Assembly: GCA_031409275.1 (NCBI GenBank) | Contig: JANNXA010000014.1 | Coordinates: 64,001 to 128,000 of the forward strand | DNA length: 64,000 nt | Source of the DNA: Planctomycetota bacterium | GTDB taxonomy: Bacteria > Planctomycetota > B15-G4 > SIAN01 | Reading direction: 5' to 3' | In this document: piece after piece, positions 51,662-62,810 of the stretch | How positions within the stretch are numbered: position 1 is the stretch's first letter | Layout of the letters: each line of letters starts with the position of its first letter | Position numbers and translations under genes: made by a program | The notes under the pieces: model-generated | The model's input: the letters and a program-made list of their open reading frames with translations, nothing else | Told to the model about the DNA's origin: nothing | Databases searched by the model: none

Positions 51662-52915
51662 TCACTCCCGCCAGCGTTGCGCCTCGGGAGTGAACTCGGT
51701 GCGCACCAGACCGCTCGGCGCATCACGCGACGAGATCGTGCCGTCTCCATCGAGGTCGAGACGGCGGAACATCGAGCTGCGACCGGGGTATTCGGCCCGC
51801 GCGATGGAGCCGTTGCCGTCGAGGTCGTAGCGAGTGAAGCAGTCGTCGAAAGCGGCGAGCGGTCCTTCGACGCGAGCGGCAGTGACGGCCGTCTCGAGTT
51901 CGCGCAGATCGAGATCGCCGTCGCCGTTCTCGTCGAACCGGATGCGCGTCGCCGCGAAGCGCGCGAGTTCGATCGTCGATAGGCTCCGGTCGCGATCGCG
52001 ATCGAGGAGCTGCATCGCCGTCTTGGCATCGGCCGCCAGGATCATCGGATAGGGGCCGCCGAATGCCCGCGAGCGCGGCAGCTCGGTCCGGTCGAGCGAA
52101 CCGTCGCCGCTGCGATCGAACAGCTCGATCAGGGGCGTCGGGATCCCGAGCTCCTTGACCGAGACCCCGCCGTTCTTGTCGCGATCGAGCTTGATGAAAA
52201 GCGCTCGCCGGTCCACGGCTAGGGGCAGCAACGACAGCTCGCCAGCGGAAAGGAGGTCGTTGCCGTCAAGGTCGGCGCGCGCATGGGCGAGGCGCGTGAG
52301 CTCGCCCGCATCGAAGCGGCCGTCGCGATCACGATCGAACCGATGCAGGTCACCGCCGCCGACGATCAGCCCCCACTCGAGCGCGGGGTTCGCGGTGCCG
52401 AAACTCGCTTGGGAGCGCGCGACGGGCGCGCGCAGCGCGACGAGGTAGTCGACGATGACGCGCGCTTCCTTGTCGCTGATCGCGGCGTCCTTCTTCTCGC
52501 GCATGCGGCGCACGGTGTCGGCCCAACCCGCCGCGCTCTTCGCCGAGCGCTCGACGCGAGTCTCGTCATGGCAGGCAAGACAACGGCGCTCGAACACTTC
52601 GTTCTTCGTGACCAGAGTTCCGATCGCGACCAGCAGGCGGTCGGGAGCCACCGCTTCGCTCGCCGGTTTGAGCGGCGGCGCTTTCGCGCTGCGGCCGAGC
52701 TCACCGGTCGAAAGCCAGCCATCGAGATCGACGTCCAGCGACACGAACGTCGTCCCCGACCCCTTCCACTCCGACCGGCCGACGAACCCGTTGCCGTCGG
52801 TGTCGAGCGTCTTCAGGAACTGGCGCCCTGCCGCGCTCTCGCCCTGCGCCGCCGCCACCGAGGCGCAGAAAACGATGACGAGCGCGCTGGCCAGCATCGA
52901 CGGCGGCTGCATCAT
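51662..52915 (-). CDS. Exported EF-hand-repeat protein with one c-type heme (CLACH)
   Basis: Signal peptide; many DxDxDG loops (LDTDGNG, FDRDRDG, LDRDKNG, YDLDGNG); CLACH with W..TVRRM possible distal Met. Confidence 0.8.
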   Translation of the reverse strand: MMQPPSMLASALVIVFCASVAAAQGESAAGRQFLKTLDTDGNGFVGRSEWKGSGTTFVSLDVDLDGWLSTGELGRSAKAPPLKPASEAVAPDRLLVAIGTLVTKNEVFERRCLACHDETRVERSAKSAAGWADTVRRMREKKDAAISDKEARVIVDYLVALRAPVARSQASFGTANPALEWGLIVGGGDLHRFDRDRDGRFDAGELTRLAHARADLDGNDLLSAGELSLLPLAVDRRALFIKLDRDKNGGVSVKELGIPTPLIELFDRSGDGSLDRTELPRSRAFGGPYPMILAADAKTAMQLLDRDRDRSLSTIELARFAATRIRFDENGDGDLDLRELETAVTAARVEGPLAAFDDCFTRYDLDGNGSIARAEYPGRSSMFRRLDLDGDGTISSRDAPSGLVRTEFTPEAQRWRE

Positions 52916-55851
52916 CGATCGACTCCCAACAACCCGAAGCCGCGCACATCCTCCGCGCTGAGCGGAACGCGCAGCACGCGCAGCAGCTCCTGCGCATCGA
53001 GGAAGCGGGCGCCTTCGTGCGAGACGTCCTTCAGGCGCCGACCATCGGGGTCGCTCATGCGATCGAGCGGGAACTCCTCGAGCACGAGGTCGCGCACGCG
53101 CAGCCCCTCGCCGAACAACGGGCCGATGATCAGCGGCTTGTCGCTCGACGAGGTGTCGAGCACGGATGCGGCCGAGCGGCCGGCGACGAGCGCGCTGCGG
53201 CGCAGGAACGGCGGGTTGTACCAGGCGGCCATCACCAGCCGGAACGCTCCGTCCGGCATCGGCTCCGCCGCGACGATCTTCGGCGACTCGGGATCGGTGA
53301 TGCGCACGATCGCGACCGCTCCCGGCGTCATCGTCTCCTCGATCGGCTGCACCGCGAAGCAGGCGTAGTCGTGCTCCTGCGTCGGCAGGTCGCCACCAGG
53401 ACTGCCAAGGTCGAATCGCGACAGCACCTGCACGTCGAGCACCCGGTTGGTGCTCTCCGGTCGGGCCGACGTCGCCGGCGACTCGACGCGCACCTCGGGC
53501 GGCGGGAAGAGCCGCTCCGGCTGGGTCGGTTCGGTCACATCGAAGAGGAAGAAGCCTTGCAGACCGCCGGCGACCGCCGCGATCTTGCGCGCCTCGGTGC
53601 GTTGACCGAGTCCATCGTCGGGGCGCGCGTACTGGAAGAGGACCTTCACCGCGTGGACATCATCCGCGCGAGTCGGGTCGAGGTTCGGATCGAGGTGACC
53701 GACGAGATCGACTTTGCCCGCGGTCGCGACATCGAAGATCTTCACGCCGGCGGCGCCGTCCGCGACGTAGAGGTGCGGCCAGCTCAGATCGAGCCCGACC
53801 GCCTCGTGCGTGGGCAGCTGCGACAGCGCTTTCGGCTTGGCCGGCTCGCTGACGTCGAAAAGGCGCACGCCGCCGCGACCATCGGCGACGTAGAGGACGC
53901 TGCCGCGCACCAGCAAGGCGCGCGGATCCGTCGTCTCCAGGAAGGCGACGCGTTCGGGGAAGGCCGCGCGACGTGCGTCGACGATGGCGACGCCCGCGCC
54001 GGCGATGGCGACGAAGAGCGTCTCGAAGCGCCCCTGCAGGTCGTCGCAGCGCGCCGCGATCGCGACCCCGCCCGGCAGCGCCAGCGATGCAAGCGGGGTC
54101 GACGCGTCGAGATTCTCGCGATCGACCGCGACGAGGTGGACGCCGCGCAGATCGAGGATCGCGGCGACCTCGCGCGACAGCCCGAAGCTCGGAGAGCCGA
54201 GCCCGACCGTGGCCGGCGAGCGGTGGCACTCGACGCAGCCGCGCGCCTGCGCGCGCGTGGTGTGCAGCTGATGATGGATCATCGTCATCCCGGAGAGTCC
54301 GGCGGCGGTCACCGGCAGCTCCTGGTCGAGGACGAGCGCGCCGGTCGCATCGTGAACGCTGCCCATCGTCGAGAAGCCGACCAGGAACGGCGCGACCTTC
54401 CCTTCGTCGTTCCAGCCGAAATAGAAGTGCTTGTAGGTCGCGAACACCTTCTCCTGCGTGGAGCAGCGTCCGGGTGTCCGGTCGCCGGTGACCAGATCGA
54501 GCTGCGAGAAGGATTCGTTGCGGTCGAAGTGGAAACCGAAGAAGTTGGCGTTCCACGCGGCGTGGCAGGTGTAGCACTCCAGCCGCTCGTGTTGCGGCGT
54601 CATCGCGCGCGCCGCCTTCGCGTTGTATTCGGGCCGCGATGGATCGATGACGTGAGTCGCCTGCGGGATGAAGTGGCGCTTGCCGTCGACCTTCGAAACC
54701 AGGTACGTGAGCCCCGCCTCGACGTGCAGATGGTCGAGCTTGCGGCCGCGAGAGGTCGTCAACGAGGAGACCTCGTCGAAGGTGCCGTGGCAGTCGGTGC
54801 ACTCGATCTCGACGGCGTGCTCCATGAAGCCCCAGATCTCGCCATCCCCCATCACGTCGCGCACGGTGTGGCAATCGACGCAGTGCATGCCGCGTTCATG
54901 GTGGACATCGGGCGGGACGATCGAGCGGTCGTTCACGTAGAAGACGCCGTTCTGCAGCGCCGCGGTCGTTCCGGGCACTTCCGGTCCCGCCGGCATTCCG
55001 GGCGCGAGCTGCGCCAGGCCGCGAAACTGCAGCCCGATCGAGGCGTCGCCGTAGTGGCAGTGCACGCAGGTCTGCGTCGGCGGCGCCGACACCATCGCGT
55101 GGCGCTCGGGATGACCGGGCTCGAAACGGTCGACGGTCGGATCGGCGCTGCGAGAGATGCCGTCGTCAGCGTAGGTCACGTGGCACGCGGAGCAGCCGGC
55201 TCCGCGGTAGTTGCCGTCCTGGCCGAGGCGGCCGCGCACGGCGGTGCCGCCCCCCCATAGATGGCATTGCATGCAGCTCTTGCGGCCAAGGTCGGTGACG
55301 TGACCCGCCAGCGAATCGCGACGCGTCGGGTCGTCGGCGAGCGGGAACCCGGGCAGCTCGGCGTAGGCCCCGTTGGGGCGACTGCGATCGCGATCGACCA
55401 CCGGGAAGATGCTGTAGCGGGTCCGGCGCTCCTTGCTGAGGCCGTTCTCGTAGAGGCTGTCGGAAAGGTGGCCGGCCGTCGTGCAATGCAGCGACTTCAG
55501 CAGGTTCTCGCAGTCGTTCGTGTGGCAGCTGCCGCAGACGCGGCTGGCCACGCGCAGGTCGCCCGGATTGACGAACTGGATCCAGGCTGGATCGTAGTCG
55601 AGCGGCAGCAGCCGCTCGTCGTTGGGCGGCGTCGCGCGCGGCTTCACGTGCGCTTGGACCTTCGTCGTCGCCTTCGCGTCGCCGCCGTGGCACGCCGTGC
55701 AGGTCAGCGGCTGCCAGGGGTGCATCTCCTCGATGCCGCCGTGACACGCCGAGCAGCCCTCCGCTTCCGGCCCCTTCGGTTGCTGGGCGCGCGCGGCCGG
55801 CAGCAGAGCGAGCAGGAGCGTCGCGCTCCACGCGACGACGCGGGTCGCCAT
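52912..55851 (-). CDS. Decaheme cytochrome c fused to LVIVD-repeat beta-propeller
   Basis: Signal ending ARA-Q; 10 CxxCH (CSACH, CTACH, CGSCH, CMQCH, CSACH, CVHCH, CVDCH, CTDCH, CYTCH, CVECH); LYVADG..GV..FDV repeats. Confidence 0.88.
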   Translation of the reverse strand: MATRVVAWSATLLLALLPAARAQQPKGPEAEGCSACHGGIEEMHPWQPLTCTACHGGDAKATTKVQAHVKPRATPPNDERLLPLDYDPAWIQFVNPGDLRVASRVCGSCHTNDCENLLKSLHCTTAGHLSDSLYENGLSKERRTRYSIFPVVDRDRSRPNGAYAELPGFPLADDPTRRDSLAGHVTDLGRKSCMQCHLWGGGTAVRGRLGQDGNYRGAGCSACHVTYADDGISRSADPTVDRFEPGHPERHAMVSAPPTQTCVHCHYGDASIGLQFRGLAQLAPGMPAGPEVPGTTAALQNGVFYVNDRSIVPPDVHHERGMHCVDCHTVRDVMGDGEIWGFMEHAVEIECTDCHGTFDEVSSLTTSRGRKLDHLHVEAGLTYLVSKVDGKRHFIPQATHVIDPSRPEYNAKAARAMTPQHERLECYTCHAAWNANFFGFHFDRNESFSQLDLVTGDRTPGRCSTQEKVFATYKHFYFGWNDEGKVAPFLVGFSTMGSVHDATGALVLDQELPVTAAGLSGMTMIHHQLHTTRAQARGCVECHRSPATVGLGSPSFGLSREVAAILDLRGVHLVAVDRENLDASTPLASLALPGGVAIAARCDDLQGRFETLFVAIAGAGVAIVDARRAAFPERVAFLETTDPRALLVRGSVLYVADGRGGVRLFDVSEPAKPKALSQLPTHEAVGLDLSWPHLYVADGAAGVKIFDVATAGKVDLVGHLDPNLDPTRADDVHAVKVLFQYARPDDGLGQRTEARKIAAVAGGLQGFFLFDVTEPTQPERLFPPPEVRVESPATSARPESTNRVLDVQVLSRFDLGSPGGDLPTQEHDYACFAVQPIEETMTPGAVAIVRITDPESPKIVAAEPMPDGAFRLVMAAWYNPPFLRRSALVAGRSAASVLDTSSSDKPLIIGPLFGEGLRVRDLVLEEFPLDRMSDPDGRRLKDVSHEGARFLDAQELLRVLRVPLSAEDVRGFGLLGVDR

Positions 55852-55859
55852 CGCGCGGC

Positions 55860-57020
55860 TCAGGAAAAGAGCCGCGGCAGCAGTCGCCCGCGAGCGAGCG
55901 GCGACTCGACGCCGAGCAGCTTGCAGACGGTCGGACAGACGTCGATGGTGCTGCAATCGGTCGCGATCGTCTTGCCCGCCTTGAAGTCGGGGCCCCACGC
56001 GACGCATGCCACCTTGTTCAGCTCGTCGGACGCATCGCCGTGGTCAAGGCCGTTGCGCTGGTTCAGGTTCTTGTCGCGGCCGAACTCCGGCAGGACGAGG
56101 ATCGACGTCGAATCGCGCAGCTGCGCGTCACCGAGTACGGTGTCGAGGATGCGGCCGAGCTCCTGATCGTTGCGCTTGATCACATCGACGTACGCGTTGA
56201 AGGAGCCGTGCGCGACGTCCGCATTCGTGAGCGAGACGCACGACAGCACCGGTCGGAAGATCTGCAGGATGTTGCCCGCGATGCGCAGCGCCTTGGCGTC
56301 ACCGGAACCTGGTCCGGTGAGGCTCACGGTCTCGCTCTGCGTGATCTCGTCGACGATGTACTTCTCGACGCGCGCGGCCGTGACCTCGTCGTTCAGCGCG
56401 GGACCGGTGACCCCGTCGCCGATCGCGCCACGCAAGCGATTCAACGCCGCGTACGCCTTCGGATCATCGGCGCGCGGCGTCCCGAACTGGCCGAGCACCT
56501 CGCGGAACTCCTGGTTGAAGATGCCCTCGCCGTCGATCACGTTCGCGCCGAAGGGAGCGCCCCAGCCGCGATTCAATCCGTACGCGAAGTTGACCCCCTG
56601 TGACCCGTTGTTGGCCGACAGCCAGGCGCCGCTCGCCGGGAGCTTCAGCTCCTTGCGGACGTACTCGAAGATGGTCGGGTTGAAGCCGCGCGAGTTCTCG
56701 CGAATGCCCATGTACTCGGGCACTCCGGTGAGGATCGACAGCGACGCGCCATAGTGGCCTAGATTCGCGGCCGCGCAGTTCGGGAAGACGACGCCCTGCG
56801 CCGCGAGCCGCATCAAGTTCGGCACGTTCGCTGGCGTGCCGATCGTGTCCTTGCTGCGAACGCCGCCGGCGAAGAGGACGAGCACGACCCGCTTCGTCTT
56901 CAGCGCGCCCACCGGCGGCGCCGCGAAGAGGGGGTTGCTGAGGGCGAGCGCGCTGGCCGCGACGGCACCCGCCTGCAGGAACCCGCGGCGCGTCACGGAC
57001 GGCAACGATGGCGTGTCCAC
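55860..57020 (-). CDS. Tat-exported DUF1501/alkaline-phosphatase-superfamily protein
   Basis: Twin-arginine TRRGFLQ; VLVLFAGG; DVAH; LVLPEFGRD..GLDHG. Confidence 0.75.
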   Translation of the reverse strand: MDTPSLPSVTRRGFLQAGAVAASALALSNPLFAAPPVGALKTKRVVLVLFAGGVRSKDTIGTPANVPNLMRLAAQGVVFPNCAAANLGHYGASLSILTGVPEYMGIRENSRGFNPTIFEYVRKELKLPASGAWLSANNGSQGVNFAYGLNRGWGAPFGANVIDGEGIFNQEFREVLGQFGTPRADDPKAYAALNRLRGAIGDGVTGPALNDEVTAARVEKYIVDEITQSETVSLTGPGSGDAKALRIAGNILQIFRPVLSCVSLTNADVAHGSFNAYVDVIKRNDQELGRILDTVLGDAQLRDSTSILVLPEFGRDKNLNQRNGLDHGDASDELNKVACVAWGPDFKAGKTIATDCSTIDVCPTVCKLLGVESPLARGRLLPRLFS

Positions 57021-57030
57021 GGTCAGCTCC

Positions 57031-58152
57031 TCAGTAGGACTGGTACTCGGAATGGGTCAACAACGCGCGCAACACGAGCCTCGCGTCCGCGCCACCCTCG
57101 ATCTCGCGCACGAAGGCGGAACTCTCCGCCGCCGTCGGCGGTCGGGCAAGGAAGTGCAGGAATCGATCGGCCACCTGCTCGGCAGGCGTCGCACCGTTAC
57201 CCAGCGCCCCATCCGCGACGCCGGAGTCGAGCATCATCTTGATCAAGACCGAGCGAAGCGGACGCGAGTCAGAAAGCGCCAGGAGCGCGTTGCGGCAGCG
57301 GCGGAACTCCTGGTAGTCCGGCACGCGGCCGAGCAGATCGGCGTAGAGCGACCGCACGAAGACGCGATCGCTCTTCGGGCGCGGCTGCGCAACGCGCTGC
57401 TCGTACGCGAGCGAGCCGAGCCAGCCAGCGACGAGGTCGGGCCATGACAATGGCTCGTTGCGCAGCCGCTCGGAGTCGGCGGCCAGCCGCTTCTTCGGCG
57501 GCGCGTCGCCGAAGATCGCCGTGAAGCGACGCTCGACGAAGCAGGGCTCACTCTGTGGATGCTCCGCGGCGATGCGCACGAAGTCCGCCTGGCTCGACCC
57601 GCTCTTCCCAAGCACATTCGCCGGGTAGCCGTCGTACATCCGCTTGGCTGCTTCCAGCAGCGCCGGCTCCTTCTGAACGGTGATTCCGAGCAATTGCTCA
57701 AGCACCACGGTCGCGAACGTGTCGTTTCCAGGGTTGCGTGCGTTGAAGAACTGGCTCGAAACGATCTGGCGGAGCATCTCGCGGATGGAGAGCTTGCGTC
57801 CAGCGAGCAACTGCGGGATCGCCGCGAACGCATCGGTCGACGGCCGGAAGTTGTCGATCAACAAAAAGTAGAAGAGCTCTTCTTCGTAGCAGCACTCCGC
57901 TGCGACGAAGCTGGACGAGAACTCACGGATCCACTCGCCGCGCGGCTTGCCTTGAGCGGCCTGCCACTCGGACGGCAGTGGCGTACGGCCAGCGAGGTCG
58001 ACGGTCGCGGCGCGGATGAAGCGACGGTCGAGCGGTGCCAGCGTCAACGACCGCTGCAACTCGGCGCCCGGAGCCTCGAGCGCCGCGGCGGCGATGACAT
58101 CTCGCGGGCCTGGCGCGAAGCGCCGAATCGAGAGGCTGACTGGATCGATCAT
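57031..58152 (-). CDS. DUF1549/DUF1553-like planctomycete protein
   Basis: DRRFIRAATVDLAGRTP and DRVFVRSLYADLLGRVP repeats; C-terminal FLARPPTAAE...ALLTHSEY. Confidence 0.7.
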   Translation of the reverse strand: MIDPVSLSIRRFAPGPRDVIAAAALEAPGAELQRSLTLAPLDRRFIRAATVDLAGRTPLPSEWQAAQGKPRGEWIREFSSSFVAAECCYEEELFYFLLIDNFRPSTDAFAAIPQLLAGRKLSIREMLRQIVSSQFFNARNPGNDTFATVVLEQLLGITVQKEPALLEAAKRMYDGYPANVLGKSGSSQADFVRIAAEHPQSEPCFVERRFTAIFGDAPPKKRLAADSERLRNEPLSWPDLVAGWLGSLAYEQRVAQPRPKSDRVFVRSLYADLLGRVPDYQEFRRCRNALLALSDSRPLRSVLIKMMLDSGVADGALGNGATPAEQVADRFLHFLARPPTAAESSAFVREIEGGADARLVLRALLTHSEYQSY

Positions 58153-58290
58153 CCTCGCCCTCGCTTCGCGTTGCGGTCAGCGACGAACCGGCCTGACGCT
58201 GGAACGATAGCGCTGCCCCCGGCCCTCGCACGCGGTGGAGCGGCGCCATTGGCACCTATCGGCACAGAGCCGCGGCATCAGCAAGGCGTG

Positions 58291-58328
58291 AAAAAAGGAG
58301 GCCCGAGCTCGCAAGCCCGGGCCTCCTT
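58291..58328 (-). terminator. Rho-independent terminator after the 58367-59113 gene
   Basis: AAGGAGGCCCG/CGGGCCTCCTT stem ending in a T6 run on minus strand. Confidence 0.85.
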
Positions 58329-58366
58329 CGTTCACGATTCTCGATGCAATTGACCGGAAGTGCGGC

Positions 58367-59113
58367 TTACGCCTTGGTCACCTTCCGCTCATCAGCCCAC
58401 TTCTTCTTCAGGGCCGCTTCACGCGTCTCGACCGCCTTCATCTGGTCGTTCAGCGCCTTCTCTTCCTTGGCCCATTCCGATTCCTTCGCAACCGTGGACT
58501 TGGCCTTCTTGGTCGCGAGGGCGGAACGCTTCGCCTCGATCTGGTCGATCTCGGTGAGGATGGTCTTGGTCTCCTTCACCACCGTCTCGAGGTCGTTCTT
58601 GTACGTCTTCGCAGCCGCGCGCTTCATCAGCGTGAAGAGCTTCGACGGCGAGATGTCCTGTCCCTCGACCGAGCCGATCTTCGCGCCCGTCGTGTCGACC
58701 ACGACCATGCGCGGCAGCTCCTTGCCGCCGAGGATCTTCCAGTACGGATGGCTGTCGGTGATCTTGTTGCCGTTCAGCTTGATCTGCTGAAACATCGTCG
58801 AGCCGATCTGGACGTTCTCGTCCATCAGCGTCGTCGCTTCGACGTTCTTCATGAACTGCGCGTGGTCCTCGAGCGCGCTGGTCAGGAAGACGATCGCCGG
58901 CTTGCCGGAGTTCTTGTAGCTGTCCGGGAGCGAGGAGTAGAGGCTCTCGGGGTTGAATCCTTCGTAGGAGTTGAACTTGGGCTCATCCCACTTCAACTCG
59001 ATGCGCGCCATACTGGCGCCGCAGCGTCCGCCGCCTCAGCCACCCTTCAGATCGGGCGTCAGGGCGAGGGCGGCCACCACCGCCATCACACCCGCAAGCG
59101 CAAACCTCTTCAT
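58367..59113 (-). CDS. Candidate selenoprotein A (248 aa): signal peptide, U26-x4-C, thioredoxin-like fold, Lys-rich coiled tail
   Basis: AAGGAGAGG SD, ATG 59113, MKRFALAGVMAVVAALALTPDLKGG-TGA(59036-59038)-GGGRCGAS in frame with ORF 58367-59011. Confidence 0.75.
59002..59023 (-). promoter_or_regulatory. bSECIS-like hairpin of candidate selenoprotein A
   Basis: 12 nt after UGA: UGCG(G)CGCCA-GUA-UGGCGCGCA, 9-bp stem with one bulge and G-led loop. Confidence 0.6.
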
Positions 59114-59361
59114 CGATCCTCTCCTTCGTTGGCCACAGCTGAGCGGAGGGGGCATCCGTCCGCGGCTGAGCGATGTCGCTTCGATCGTTGATTACGCCAT
59201 CCCGGCTGAAGCGGCGCAAGGTCCTGTGACCGTCTGCTCCGCGGCGACCGGTGCTCGTCCGCCGAGAATCACCGGCACGCCTGTCCATGCCTTCCATCGT
59301 AAAAGACGATCAAAGAAATTTGTATCTCCATGATGTCTCCAACGAGTCGTCGTTCTCGAAT

Positions 59362-60168
59362 TCAGCCCTTCGCAACCTTGCGGTCGTCGCTGAACTTCTT
59401 CAAGAGCTCGGAATCGCGCGTCTGCACGTCCTGCAAGGCCTTGGCGAGAGCGGCCTCCTCGACACCGATCTCCTGCAGCTTCGCGCCCTTCGCAGTCTTC
59501 TTCTGCTCGACCAGGAGCTTCTGCTTCGCCTCGATCTGGTCCATCTCGTCGAGCAGCGAGCGCGTGTCCTTGACGACCTTGTCGAGGTCGGCTTTGTACG
59601 TCTTGCTTGCAGCCTTCTTCATCGACTTGAAAAGATTCGACGCCGAAAGCTCATTGCCTTCAAGGACGCCCGCCTTCTTGCCGGACGCGTCGATCACGAC
59701 CACGCGCGGCAGCGACTTGCCGCCGAGCGTCGGCCAATGCGGGTGGTCCTTCGAGACCTTGTCGCCCTTCATGCGGACCGCGCGGAAGAGGCGAGCGCCC
59801 ACTGCGACGTTCTCGTCGCCGAAGACAGCCGTTTCGAGCTCGGACATCTTCTTCGCGGCATCGGGCAGATCGGTGCCGAGGAAGAGGACGAGCGGCTTGC
59901 CGACTTCGGTGTACTCGGCCGGGAGGCACGAGAAGAAGTTGGTGGCGTCAACGTGGTCGTAGAGGTTGATCTTCGGCGTCTCCCACTTCATCTGGAGACG
60001 CGCAACGCTCGACGTGCCTTGGCGGGAAATACCGCCGCCGCTACGCATTCCACCACCGGATCGGGCGGCTCCGCCGCCCCCACCGCCGCATCAGCCGCCG
60101 CGAAGGTCGGGAGAGAGTGCGAGAGCGGCCGCGACCGCAATCGCTCCACCGAAAAGCCGGATCCGCAT
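59362..60168 (-). CDS. Candidate selenoprotein B (268 aa): signal peptide, U26-C27, Gly linker, thioredoxin-like fold; paralog of A
   Basis: AGGGAG SD, ATG 60168, MRIRLFGGAIAVAAALALSPDLRGG-TGA(60091-60093)-CGGGGGG in frame with ORF 59362-60048. Confidence 0.75.
60063..60079 (-). promoter_or_regulatory. bSECIS-like hairpin of candidate selenoprotein B
   Basis: 11 nt after UGA: GGGCGGC-GGA-GCCGCCC, perfect 7-bp stem with G-led loop. Confidence 0.6.
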
Positions 60169-60383
60169 GTAACGCTCCCTAAGTCGACTCGGCGCCGCTG
60201 GCGGATCGACATGCTTTCGCCGGGCATCCGGCGCAGCGTCCGATCGACGGCGCAATCGGTCTTTTCATAGCAATGGCACGACGAAAAGTGACGGAGGCGT
60301 GTCAAAGCCGCGTTAGTGCGCATTCAGATCCATCGGTGAGGCTCACGCACCGCAATCGGGTCGTCCGATCCGCGCGCGACCAT

Positions 60384-61607
60384 TCAAGTGGTCGCGAGAA
60401 TTCTTCTCGCCGCGTCGAGCTCGGAGGTCAACGCGTCGACCACGTCCGCGGGCGACGGGCAACCGGGCAGGGTCGGCAGCGTGTAGGTCTCGACCTCGAA
60501 GCAGTCGGTCAGGCCGAGGCGCCGTGAGATCCGCAACGCCTGGATCCACTCGCCTCGCGTCGTCAAGAGTCCATCGACCTGCGCGCGATCGATCGGCACG
60601 TGGTAGTGGACGCGCAGCTCCGCACCGACACTCGCGCCGGCAAACGCGGTGATGCCCTCGTCGAGGTCGAGGTAAGGCGCAACGCGACCGTTCGCCTCGC
60701 GAACGAACGATTGATGCAGCCAGCGCGGCTCGACGAAGCGGCGCAGCGCCGACAACTGCTGGTCGGCCGTCCCGTCGGACCGCGCGACGAGGGCGCTCGA
60801 AAGCTGCATCTTGCCGATACGAACGCCGGCCGCCGCGAGCAGTCCGAGCGCCAGTTCCGGCGCTTCGAACTCGACCGCCTGGTGACAGCAGTCGTAGCAG
60901 AGTCCGAGGTGACGGCGGAGCGCTTCGGACGCCGCCGACGATGCCCCTCCCGCCGCAACGTAGCTCGCGCGCGTCGCGGCGCTCGCGAGCGGACCGCTGA
61001 AGAAGGCGACCGCCTCCGCGGATGTCTCGATCGTGGTGAACGGCTCGGGCTCCAGGCACAGCACCACTTCGCGTCCCGTCTCTTCGAACAAGCGCGCGAG
61101 ACCGGCCGCGACGAGCGCGAGGTTCGAGGCGATCGCGCGATGCACCTCCGGGCCATTGCCGTCGAGCTTGCACGCGCCGGCCAACGTCGAGATCGGGACG
61201 ACGGATCCGGCGGGGACCAACGTCGCCGCGACGCGCGCCGCCTGCAGCGTGAAGTCGACACGCGCCGACTCGAGCCAGCTCGGCCGATAGACGTCGCGCT
61301 TCACCCGTTCGCGGTGGAAACCGCCGAACGGAAAGCAGTTGAACGTGGCGATCGTGAGCCGCCGCTGCGCGAGAAAATCGGCGAAGCGCGCGCATCGATC
61401 GGGCTGCGCCAATTCGGACGCGGTCGCGGCGCTGACGAACAGCCCCACCGGAAACGAGGCGTCGCCGACGAAGCGGCGCGCGACGGGGACCACGAACTCA
61501 TCGAGCGACCGCTCGACCTGCGCCAGGGTCTCACCGGCGTGAACGTTCGTGCAGTAGGTGAGGGTCGCGGCGGCGCGGCGTTCGCCTTGTCCCGTTGCCA
61601 TCTGCAT
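60384..61607 (-). CDS. eboE: EboE-family TIM-barrel protein (start uncertain, 61601-61619)
   Basis: LTYCTNVHAGE, FNCFPFGGFH..VKRDVYRPSW, LEPEP, CYDCCHQAVEFE, RVHYHVP, EVETYT. Confidence 0.85.
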   Translation of the reverse strand: MQMATGQGERRAAATLTYCTNVHAGETLAQVERSLDEFVVPVARRFVGDASFPVGLFVSAATASELAQPDRCARFADFLAQRRLTIATFNCFPFGGFHRERVKRDVYRPSWLESARVDFTLQAARVAATLVPAGSVVPISTLAGACKLDGNGPEVHRAIASNLALVAAGLARLFEETGREVVLCLEPEPFTTIETSAEAVAFFSGPLASAATRASYVAAGGASSAASEALRRHLGLCYDCCHQAVEFEAPELALGLLAAAGVRIGKMQLSSALVARSDGTADQQLSALRRFVEPRWLHQSFVREANGRVAPYLDLDEGITAFAGASVGAELRVHYHVPIDRAQVDGLLTTRGEWIQALRISRRLGLTDCFEVETYTLPTLPGCPSPADVVDALTSELDAARRILATT

Positions 61608-61673
61608 CGCCCGCCTCACGCATCATGCGCGCCTCGTTTCAGCCCCACGCGCGGGCACGTTAGCGTCGCTGCG

Positions 61674-62810
<1,137 letters not shown>

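Follow-up and report, generated by a model that had tools for sequence, protein, structure and literature searches.

The stem of the Escherichia coli fdhF SECIS element starts 11 nt after its UGA codon. Bacterial SECIS elements are described more generally as hairpins with a loop of 3-9 nt, a stem of 4-16 bp, and a folding energy at or below -7.5 kcal/mol (PMC13188914, section 5 and Fig. 2A legend); a G is found in the first two loop positions, the distance from UGA to loop is 16-37 nt, and most elements follow the signature N1-G-(G/U)-N-N2, in which N1 and N2 are paired (PMC13188914). The two hairpins described here, located in tandem genes of a planctomycete, share with these elements a position in the coding region just after a UGA, a 3-nt apical loop, and a stem of 7-9 bp. 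They differ in no matter of principle; here, the element is carried by the codons of an N-terminal linker of low complexity, and in one of its types it fixes the encoded peptide as A-S-(M/L/V)-A and forces the use of a rare AGT codon.

Known bacterial selenoproteins with a thioredoxin fold include the Sec-Trx, DsbA/DsbG-like, and Prx-like proteins, as well as Trx7/PDZ (NF041199) and VPGUxxT (NF041383) (PMC13188914, Table 1). Shared with the proteins encoded at this locus are the fold itself, the exchange of selenocysteine (Sec) and Cys among homologs, and SelB/SECIS decoding. However, Sec-Trx and the DsbA/DsbG-like proteins carry Sec in a UxxC or CxxU motif of the fold, whereas here it sits on an arm 7 to 82 residues in front of the domain; in the two proteins of this locus, U26 lies about 50 residues before the corresponding site, which has no Cys. 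Additionally, the CxxC of the fold is absent in 100 of the 121 TGA-containing members of the family described below, including both of these, and a helical hairpin follows the domain. A second likeness, by analogy, is with animal thioredoxin reductase, which carries a C-terminal Gly-Cys-Sec-Gly arm: both may present a vicinal pair of Sec and Cys on a flexible, Gly-flanked terminal arm (G-U-C-G in one of our genes). In the present family, however, the arm is N-terminal and exported, no flavin domain is present, the spacing varies (UC, CU, UU, UxxxxC), and homology is not shown.

Literature searches of main texts and listings returned no description of this family. In the available part of the 119-family table of 2026 (PMC13188914), no row has its architecture, with CDD- and PANTHER-defined rows compared by description only; the families of Haft and Tolstoy (2025) were compared through their rows in the same table. 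The main texts of PMC13326102 and PMC12013277, as far as available, make no mention of Planctomycetes or signal peptides, and the accessible part of PMC4807772 treats other planctomycete selenoproteins. No selenoprotein model in NCBIfam 20.0 or Pfam was matched by either protein of the locus or by 42 of the 114 family members with a clear start.

Gene structure and predicted hairpins

The window analysed here is a 64,000-nt stretch of a planctomycete contig, and the genome it comes from is 92.9% complete. It contains two tandem paralogs on the minus strand, termed B and A, which are 44% identical over 215 aa. If UGA26 is read as Sec, gene B (59362..60168, minus strand) encodes 268 aa and gene A (58367..59113, minus strand) encodes 248 aa. 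In gene B, a signal-peptide-like leader is followed by G-U-C, a Gly-rich linker, a thioredoxin-fold domain without CxxC, and a long helical hairpin; gene A has the same type of leader, then G-U-GGGR-C, a thioredoxin-fold domain without CxxC, and a helical hairpin. Orthologs of gene B in G038, G040, and G041 keep the same frame. The predicted signal peptides (residues 1-24) span 60097..60168 in B and 59042..59113 in A, both on the minus strand and both read from sequence, with the putative cleavage site of B taken from the family pattern and that of A likewise putative. The in-frame TGA of B (60091..60093, minus strand) is directly followed by Cys27, and that of A (59036..59038, minus strand) has Cys31 downstream at 59023-59021. 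An inverted repeat with a run of T residues, resembling a terminator, is visible after gene A (58291..58328, minus strand).

A 211-nt contig assembled from RNA run X2 spans 58996-59206, including the TGA of gene A, with zero differences. Contigs from X2 and X3 both span this TGA and its hairpin; they are no demonstration of transcription or read-through, and only small shares of the 64,000-nt window are represented in the RNA runs.

Both hairpins proposed in the earlier note were recovered where it had placed them. The hairpin of B (60063..60079, minus strand) begins 11 nt behind the TGA and has a 7-bp stem, a GGA loop, and an energy of -13.7 kcal/mol, with its loop 18 nt after the UGA. The hairpin of A (59002..59023, minus strand) begins 12 nt behind the TGA; its 9-bp stem contains a single bulged G, and its loop, GUA, lies 22 nt after the UGA. 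The 6-bp core (59019-59005) has an energy of -8.7 kcal/mol, and the full bulged stem -13.1 kcal/mol. The unconstrained fold of A prefers the 6-bp core together with a competing lower hairpin, and when the first 11-12 nt are blocked, as they would be under a ribosome, the minimum-energy fold is the 9-bp bulged stem. The lower 3 bp of this stem are not retained outside the family. With the signatures A-GUA-U at 22 nt and C-GGA-G at 18 nt, A and B lie within the published description in every respect (PMC13188914).

The stability of each hairpin was also compared with shuffled sequences. Dinucleotide shuffles gave folding-energy z scores of -0.31 (A) and -1.49 (B), and synonymous shuffles gave p values of 0.22 (A) and 0.21 (B) for overall folding energy and of 0.21 (A) and 0.29 (B) under a loose hairpin model. 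A strict model requiring a G(G/U) loop returned 0.007 (A) and 0.039 (B), but this model was adopted after the family data had been seen. A search of Rfam over 58000-60600 found no SECIS family, returning six weak matches, all under their gathering scores. The caution attached to the original proposal, that Gly and Ala codons in high-GC DNA form hairpins easily, holds for single genes (p ~0.2) and is overcome only by family comparison. Stability alone does not set the hairpin of A or B apart from chance; their relatives do.

A family of TGA-containing genes in Planctomycetota

A family profile built from 72 proteins was run on 401 sampled Planctomycetota genomes and matched in 123 of them, a count that overstates family membership because the weakest matches include unrelated thioredoxins. 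Inspected weak matches (E ~1e-7 to 1e-8) in G139, G129, G384, and G310 were rejected as other thioredoxin-type proteins. The loci of relatives, the profile matches, and 80 further regions from the top of the ranking together gave 139 distinct genes. A script placed 123 of these in the class with a TGA behind a hydrophobic stretch; two (L092 and L149) were dropped on inspection, as their TGA does not stand behind the gene's own signal peptide. A TGA right after a signal-peptide-like stretch was thereby observed in 121 of the 139 genes, from 95 genome handles. Among the other 18, six have Cys at the equivalent site, one has TGG with a Cys behind it, and the remaining 11 lack both Sec and Cys at the tip or could not be resolved there; the residue is therefore dispensable in some lineages. 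The TGG gene (L108, on contig C21 of G126) has Trp in place of the TGA and a weak hairpin (-4.9), and likely reflects loss of Sec through a single base change.

A third match to the profile in the host genome (G000:C10:178610-179209, plus strand) lies within a 776-codon open frame. Long forms akin to it occur in G306, G121, G348, G145, G165, and G097 and represent a fused form of the domain.

The tips of the 121 TGA genes vary in motif: UC in 49, U-x(2-6)-C in 25, CU in 23, UU in 17, and U alone in 7, so that a second Cys or Sec stands near U in 114. The UU genes, in which two adjacent TGA codons follow the signal peptide, are L036, L037, L103, L107, L117, L121, L123, L126, L129, L131-L133, L137, L142, L143, L150, and L154. 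The -3,-1 rule for signal peptidase I is best satisfied when the first Cys or Sec is placed at position +2 of the mature chain, which holds for 95 of 121 genes as compared with 20-40 at other offsets. A reading of the family as selenolipoproteins was rejected: a lipobox directly precedes the first Cys or Sec in only two of 121.

These distributions bear on whether the TGA is instead a true stop behind a leader ORF, with translation restarting at the ATG at 59011 (A) or 60048 (B) and the hairpins being either a by-product of Gly and Ala codons or a means of controlling the restart. Databases do call the genes in this way (P0003, P0004), NTG occupies the relevant position in 38 of 41 genes of the same type as A, and the single-gene stability results were not significant. 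Yet 121 of 139 homologs retain, in frame, a leader that reads as a signal peptide, TAA or TAG was never found in place of TGA at the site in the homologs examined, the Cys homologs are continuous ORFs through it, the codon is ATG in just 17 of the 41, and many members lack a nearby Met altogether. We regard such a restart as very improbable. With the TGA read as Sec, gene callers would be cutting genes of this family at the UGA, losing both the signal peptide and the Sec residue.

The stem of A does enclose the ATG at 59011, as had been noticed, its first base lying in the loop and the other two in the 3' arm. Its burial is best read as a by-product, because the stem needs NTG, which pairs with CCA.

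Selection on the RNA

Hairpins were scored family-wide as contiguous stems with a G(G/U) loop located 15-30 nt after the UGA and an energy at or below -5 kcal/mol. By this measure, 89 of the 121 TGA genes carry a hairpin, 65 of them at -8.7 or better, as compared with expectations from synonymous shuffling of 29.7 and 10.5, respectively. Background rates in the host genome were close to one another: among 1500 TGA stops, 8.5% were followed by such a hairpin, as were 9.3% of 1500 Cys codons, and the rate for 1082 Gly runs was 9.4%. Moving the search range by 30 nt in the same 121 genes left 12 with a hairpin. Individually, 27 of 121 genes reached p <= 0.05 by synonymous shuffle under the loose model and 60 under the strict model, and the contiguous-stem model found no hairpin in 32. 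Among the six Cys homologs, five lack a G(G/U)-loop hairpin and one has it. The synonymous-shuffle check suggested in the earlier note thus did not separate either hairpin by itself in overall folding energy or under the loose model; for the family as a whole, hairpins exceeded the shuffled expectation. The family-wide tests are decisive for the hairpins being more than chance.

The loop signatures in the family are AGU (51), CGG (19), CGU (9), and others (17). Forty-one genes share with A the peptide A-S-(M/L/V/S)-A, and in all 41 the Ser codon is AGT, which in the bodies of the 121 genes accounts for 4.8% of Ser codons; GCC precedes this AGT in 40. Two facing third codon positions in the stem of this type are paired in 37 of 41 genes (C-G in 24, G-C in 10, and G-U in 3), against a permutation mean of 21.6; this level was reached in none of 20,000 shuffles, a figure that overstates the case because kin are not independent. 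On the protein tree, the G-C state of this pair requires five changes, at least four of them forced by well-supported branches. Covariation, another check that had been proposed, is thereby observed in the type of A, and the stem of B offers a smaller parallel. Across its four orthologs, 28 of 28 cells of the stem are paired, with the third loop base varying and one pair being G-U; one pair shows a compensatory switch, G-C having become C-G with two amino acids altered, although in these four sequences the covariation was reached in 120 of 500 shuffles and is not significant alone.

The idea that structure rather than sequence is conserved therefore needs dividing. Stems differ and tolerate compensatory changes, as that idea would have it, but the loop signature N1-G-(G/U)-N-N2 is kept, and in the type of A the AGU is invariant, so that sequence is plainly conserved there. 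Neither is a stem start at 11-12 nt the conserved distance, as had been supposed: in genes of this type the loop is found 15, 18, 21, or 24 nt after the UGA, and what is conserved is a UGA-to-loop distance within a range. Taken with the published constraints, these family-wide tests strongly support the proposal that both hairpins are bSECIS-like, and the two are very likely bacterial SECIS elements.

The hairpins themselves would then be ordinary elements of a known kind. What the family offers is a natural mutational series for the rules governing them, with some 120 elements that vary in spacing and lie in unconstrained linker codons, together with controls that have reverted to Cys; loop sequence, limits on spacing, and the decoding of adjacent UGA codons become directly testable in it.

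Selenocysteine machinery and TGA use

The host genome encodes SelA, SelB, and SelD, all above their cut-offs, and a tRNA-Sec with a UCA anticodon. Its SelD gene contains an in-frame TGA of its own and, behind it, a hairpin of 9 bp with a GUU loop. Among 42 genomes of the class, selA was found in 40 and tRNA-Sec in 39; across the wider sample, 118 of the 123 genomes with a profile match gave a selA hit, as compared with 172 of 278 others, a contrast between kin that are not independent. No selA hit was obtained in four drafts that carry TGA genes (G007, G034, G102, and G183), where SelB is above cut-off in all four and SelD or tRNA-Sec was identified in three.

TGA ends 1600 of 1994 long ORFs in the host genome. 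As the main stop codon, it must therefore be recoded at specific sites and is not generally reassigned; genome-wide TGA recoding is ruled out. The same count weighs against a reading of UGA26 as Cys or Trp, whether by suppression or by an altered code, for which the homolog with TGG at the site might be cited; moreover, the sole tRNA with a UCA anticodon that was found is tRNA-Sec, and the RNA shows selection of the SECIS type. We consider this alternative scarcely credible. Because TGA and Cys alternate in the family, hairpins follow the TGA, their loop codon is fixed and their stems covary, and SelA, SelB, SelD, and tRNA-Sec are encoded, the UGA codons of A and B are best read as Sec; SelB binding and Sec insertion at UGA26 of both genes are, in our judgment, nearly certain.

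As an internal control, 38 TGA sites of the host genome flanked by coding-like sequence were also inspected by eye: a hairpin of this kind accompanies nearly all of those in recognisable redox motifs and is missing from most that look like gene junctions. About 19 further in-frame TGA sites, scattered over many contigs with coding sequence on both sides, nearly all carry a G(G/U)-loop hairpin. Most lie in redox-like motifs, recognized by eye as those of UxxC thioredoxins, TxxU peroxiredoxins, and MsrA-like and glutaredoxin-like proteins; the genome thus has a large selenoproteome, with its family names assigned by eye. One site (G000:C23:25248, minus strand) has the context D-D-x-S-C-U-G-S-G, which may resemble the surroundings of Sec in animal selenoprotein N. 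Three others (G000:C34:64177, C14:295797, and C3:2400, all minus strand) combine an in-frame TGA and a hairpin in what appear by eye to be FG-GAP-like repeat proteins, and no such family was seen in the available part of the 2026 table (PMC13188914).

Predicted export, fold, and function

Sequence searches of Pfam, NCBIfam, and PDB identified no family for these proteins, the best thioredoxin-like PDB match being 3fk8 (E 0.047). A structural model of A, with a mean pLDDT of 90, predicts a thioredoxin fold at about residues 70-170 (58604..58906, minus strand; no CxxC), in which the near-invariant Pro134 occupies the site expected for the cis-proline loop, followed by a long C-terminal two-helix hairpin at residues 175-241 (58391..58591, minus strand). 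Contact between the arm and the domain is not established by the model because the first 30 residues are of low confidence (pLDDT ~59). The best Foldseek match for A is the C-terminal domain of DsbD (E 2.7e-5), with further matches to AGR2, ERp19, and DsbH. These proteins (PDB 2fwf, 2ju5, 1sen, and 9i3u) are likewise extracytoplasmic thioredoxin folds; they match at 12-22% identity over the central domain only (query TM ~0.35), and none has an N-terminal Sec arm.

Based on the position of the UGA and the cleavage pattern of the family, the products are probably exported and cleaved before Gly25, which would place Sec at position +2 of the mature chain. The proposed course of events is as follows: the hairpin would recruit SelB and Sec-tRNA so that Sec enters at codon 26, and the precursor would be exported and cut, leaving Sec at about residue 2. 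The U26-C31 pair in A, or U26-C27 in B, could then cycle between a selenenyl-sulfide and a selenolate/thiol, with the arm reducing or isomerising bonds in envelope proteins and the thioredoxin domain binding those substrates; the CxxC of this domain is lost in A and B and kept in 21 of the 121 relatives. A position just behind the signal peptide may suit such a protein in two ways, as the SECIS element would fit in a low-complexity linker and failed read-through would free only a signal peptide. That Sec and a nearby Cys serve as a redox arm on the mobile end of a thioredoxin-fold body seems to us an evenly balanced proposition. The explanation as a whole, in which bSECIS elements direct Sec to about residue 2 of a protein destined for export and a redox arm is the predicted function, we hold to be quite likely.

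The fixed position of the first Cys or Sec behind the predicted cleavage site (95 of 121), despite a distance to the domain that ranges from 7 to 82 residues, could also be explained if Sec is inserted through the hairpins and the arm is a metal-binding hook, in which the amino terminus, residue 2, and a second Cys or Sec might hold a soft metal. The nickel hook of Ni-superoxide dismutase is the model for this analogy, and the Cys clusters carried by the Cys homologs would be in keeping with it. However, 39 of 121 members have Gln at residue +1, and an N-terminal Gln often cyclises, blocking the amine; the body has a thiol-oxidoreductase fold, with CxxC in the 21 members noted above; and no recurrent metal-handling genes were found nearby. 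A metal hook is a tentative alternative and a rather unlikely one.

Absence of CxxC from 100 of the 121 members, together with the AGR2/AGR3-like fold match, has a further possible reading: the thioredoxin and helical body might be a non-redox chaperone or adaptor, with Sec acting as a selenium-dependent gate on its production, such that full-length protein would be exported only in the presence of selenium, or as a selenium store. Some members have neither Cys nor Sec at the tip, and the low cost of termination at codon 26, where only a signal peptide is wasted, would suit a gate. A pure gate, however, needs neither the second Cys or Sec found by U in 114 of 121 genes nor the replacement of Sec by Cys, and we think this account improbable.

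The family spans many families of Planctomycetota, and with the UGA read as Sec, this residue lies outside the fold, on an N-terminal arm, in four spacings that include tandem Sec-Sec. It may represent a class of exported selenoproteins spread through the phylum: a free arm with selenium at residue 2 of the mature chain (Sec-Cys, Cys-Sec, Sec-Sec, or Sec-x4-Cys) would have replaced catalysis by a thioredoxin fold that lacks CxxC, the SECIS would be encoded within that arm, and in the 17 UU members one hairpin would serve both Sec codons; we give this broader view about an even chance.

Neighbouring genes

A scan of the neighbours of 98 of 116 candidate ORFs indicated that gene context is not conserved beyond the taxonomic family, and it gave no hint of a substrate. 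Within narrower groups, two arrangements recur: an eboE-like TIM barrel gene upstream in genus g1, and lipoyl synthase downstream in five loci of family f4. In the latter (L028, L029, L030, L031, and L033), the family gene stands directly upstream of the lipoyl synthase gene, which is itself followed by a gene for a dehydrogenase E1 or a pyridine-nucleotide disulfide oxidoreductase. In the window, the gene upstream of B (60384-61619, minus strand) encodes an EboE-family TIM barrel that scores above the NCBIfam cut-off, and an EboE-type gene, assigned by Pfam class, is likewise upstream in G038 and G040.

Downstream of gene A, the region at 52912-58152 (minus strand) encodes a DUF4214/DUF1549-like protein, a TAT-exported sulfatase-like protein, and a multiheme cytochrome c. 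The cytochrome (1031 aa, with LVIVD repeats) resembles ExtM, which belongs to a selenite/tellurite reduction operon, at a score below the cut-off (213 of 800 bits). Beyond the EboE-family gene, the ORF at 61654-62810 (plus strand) appears by eye, from its sequence motifs, to encode a MutY-like adenine glycosylase.
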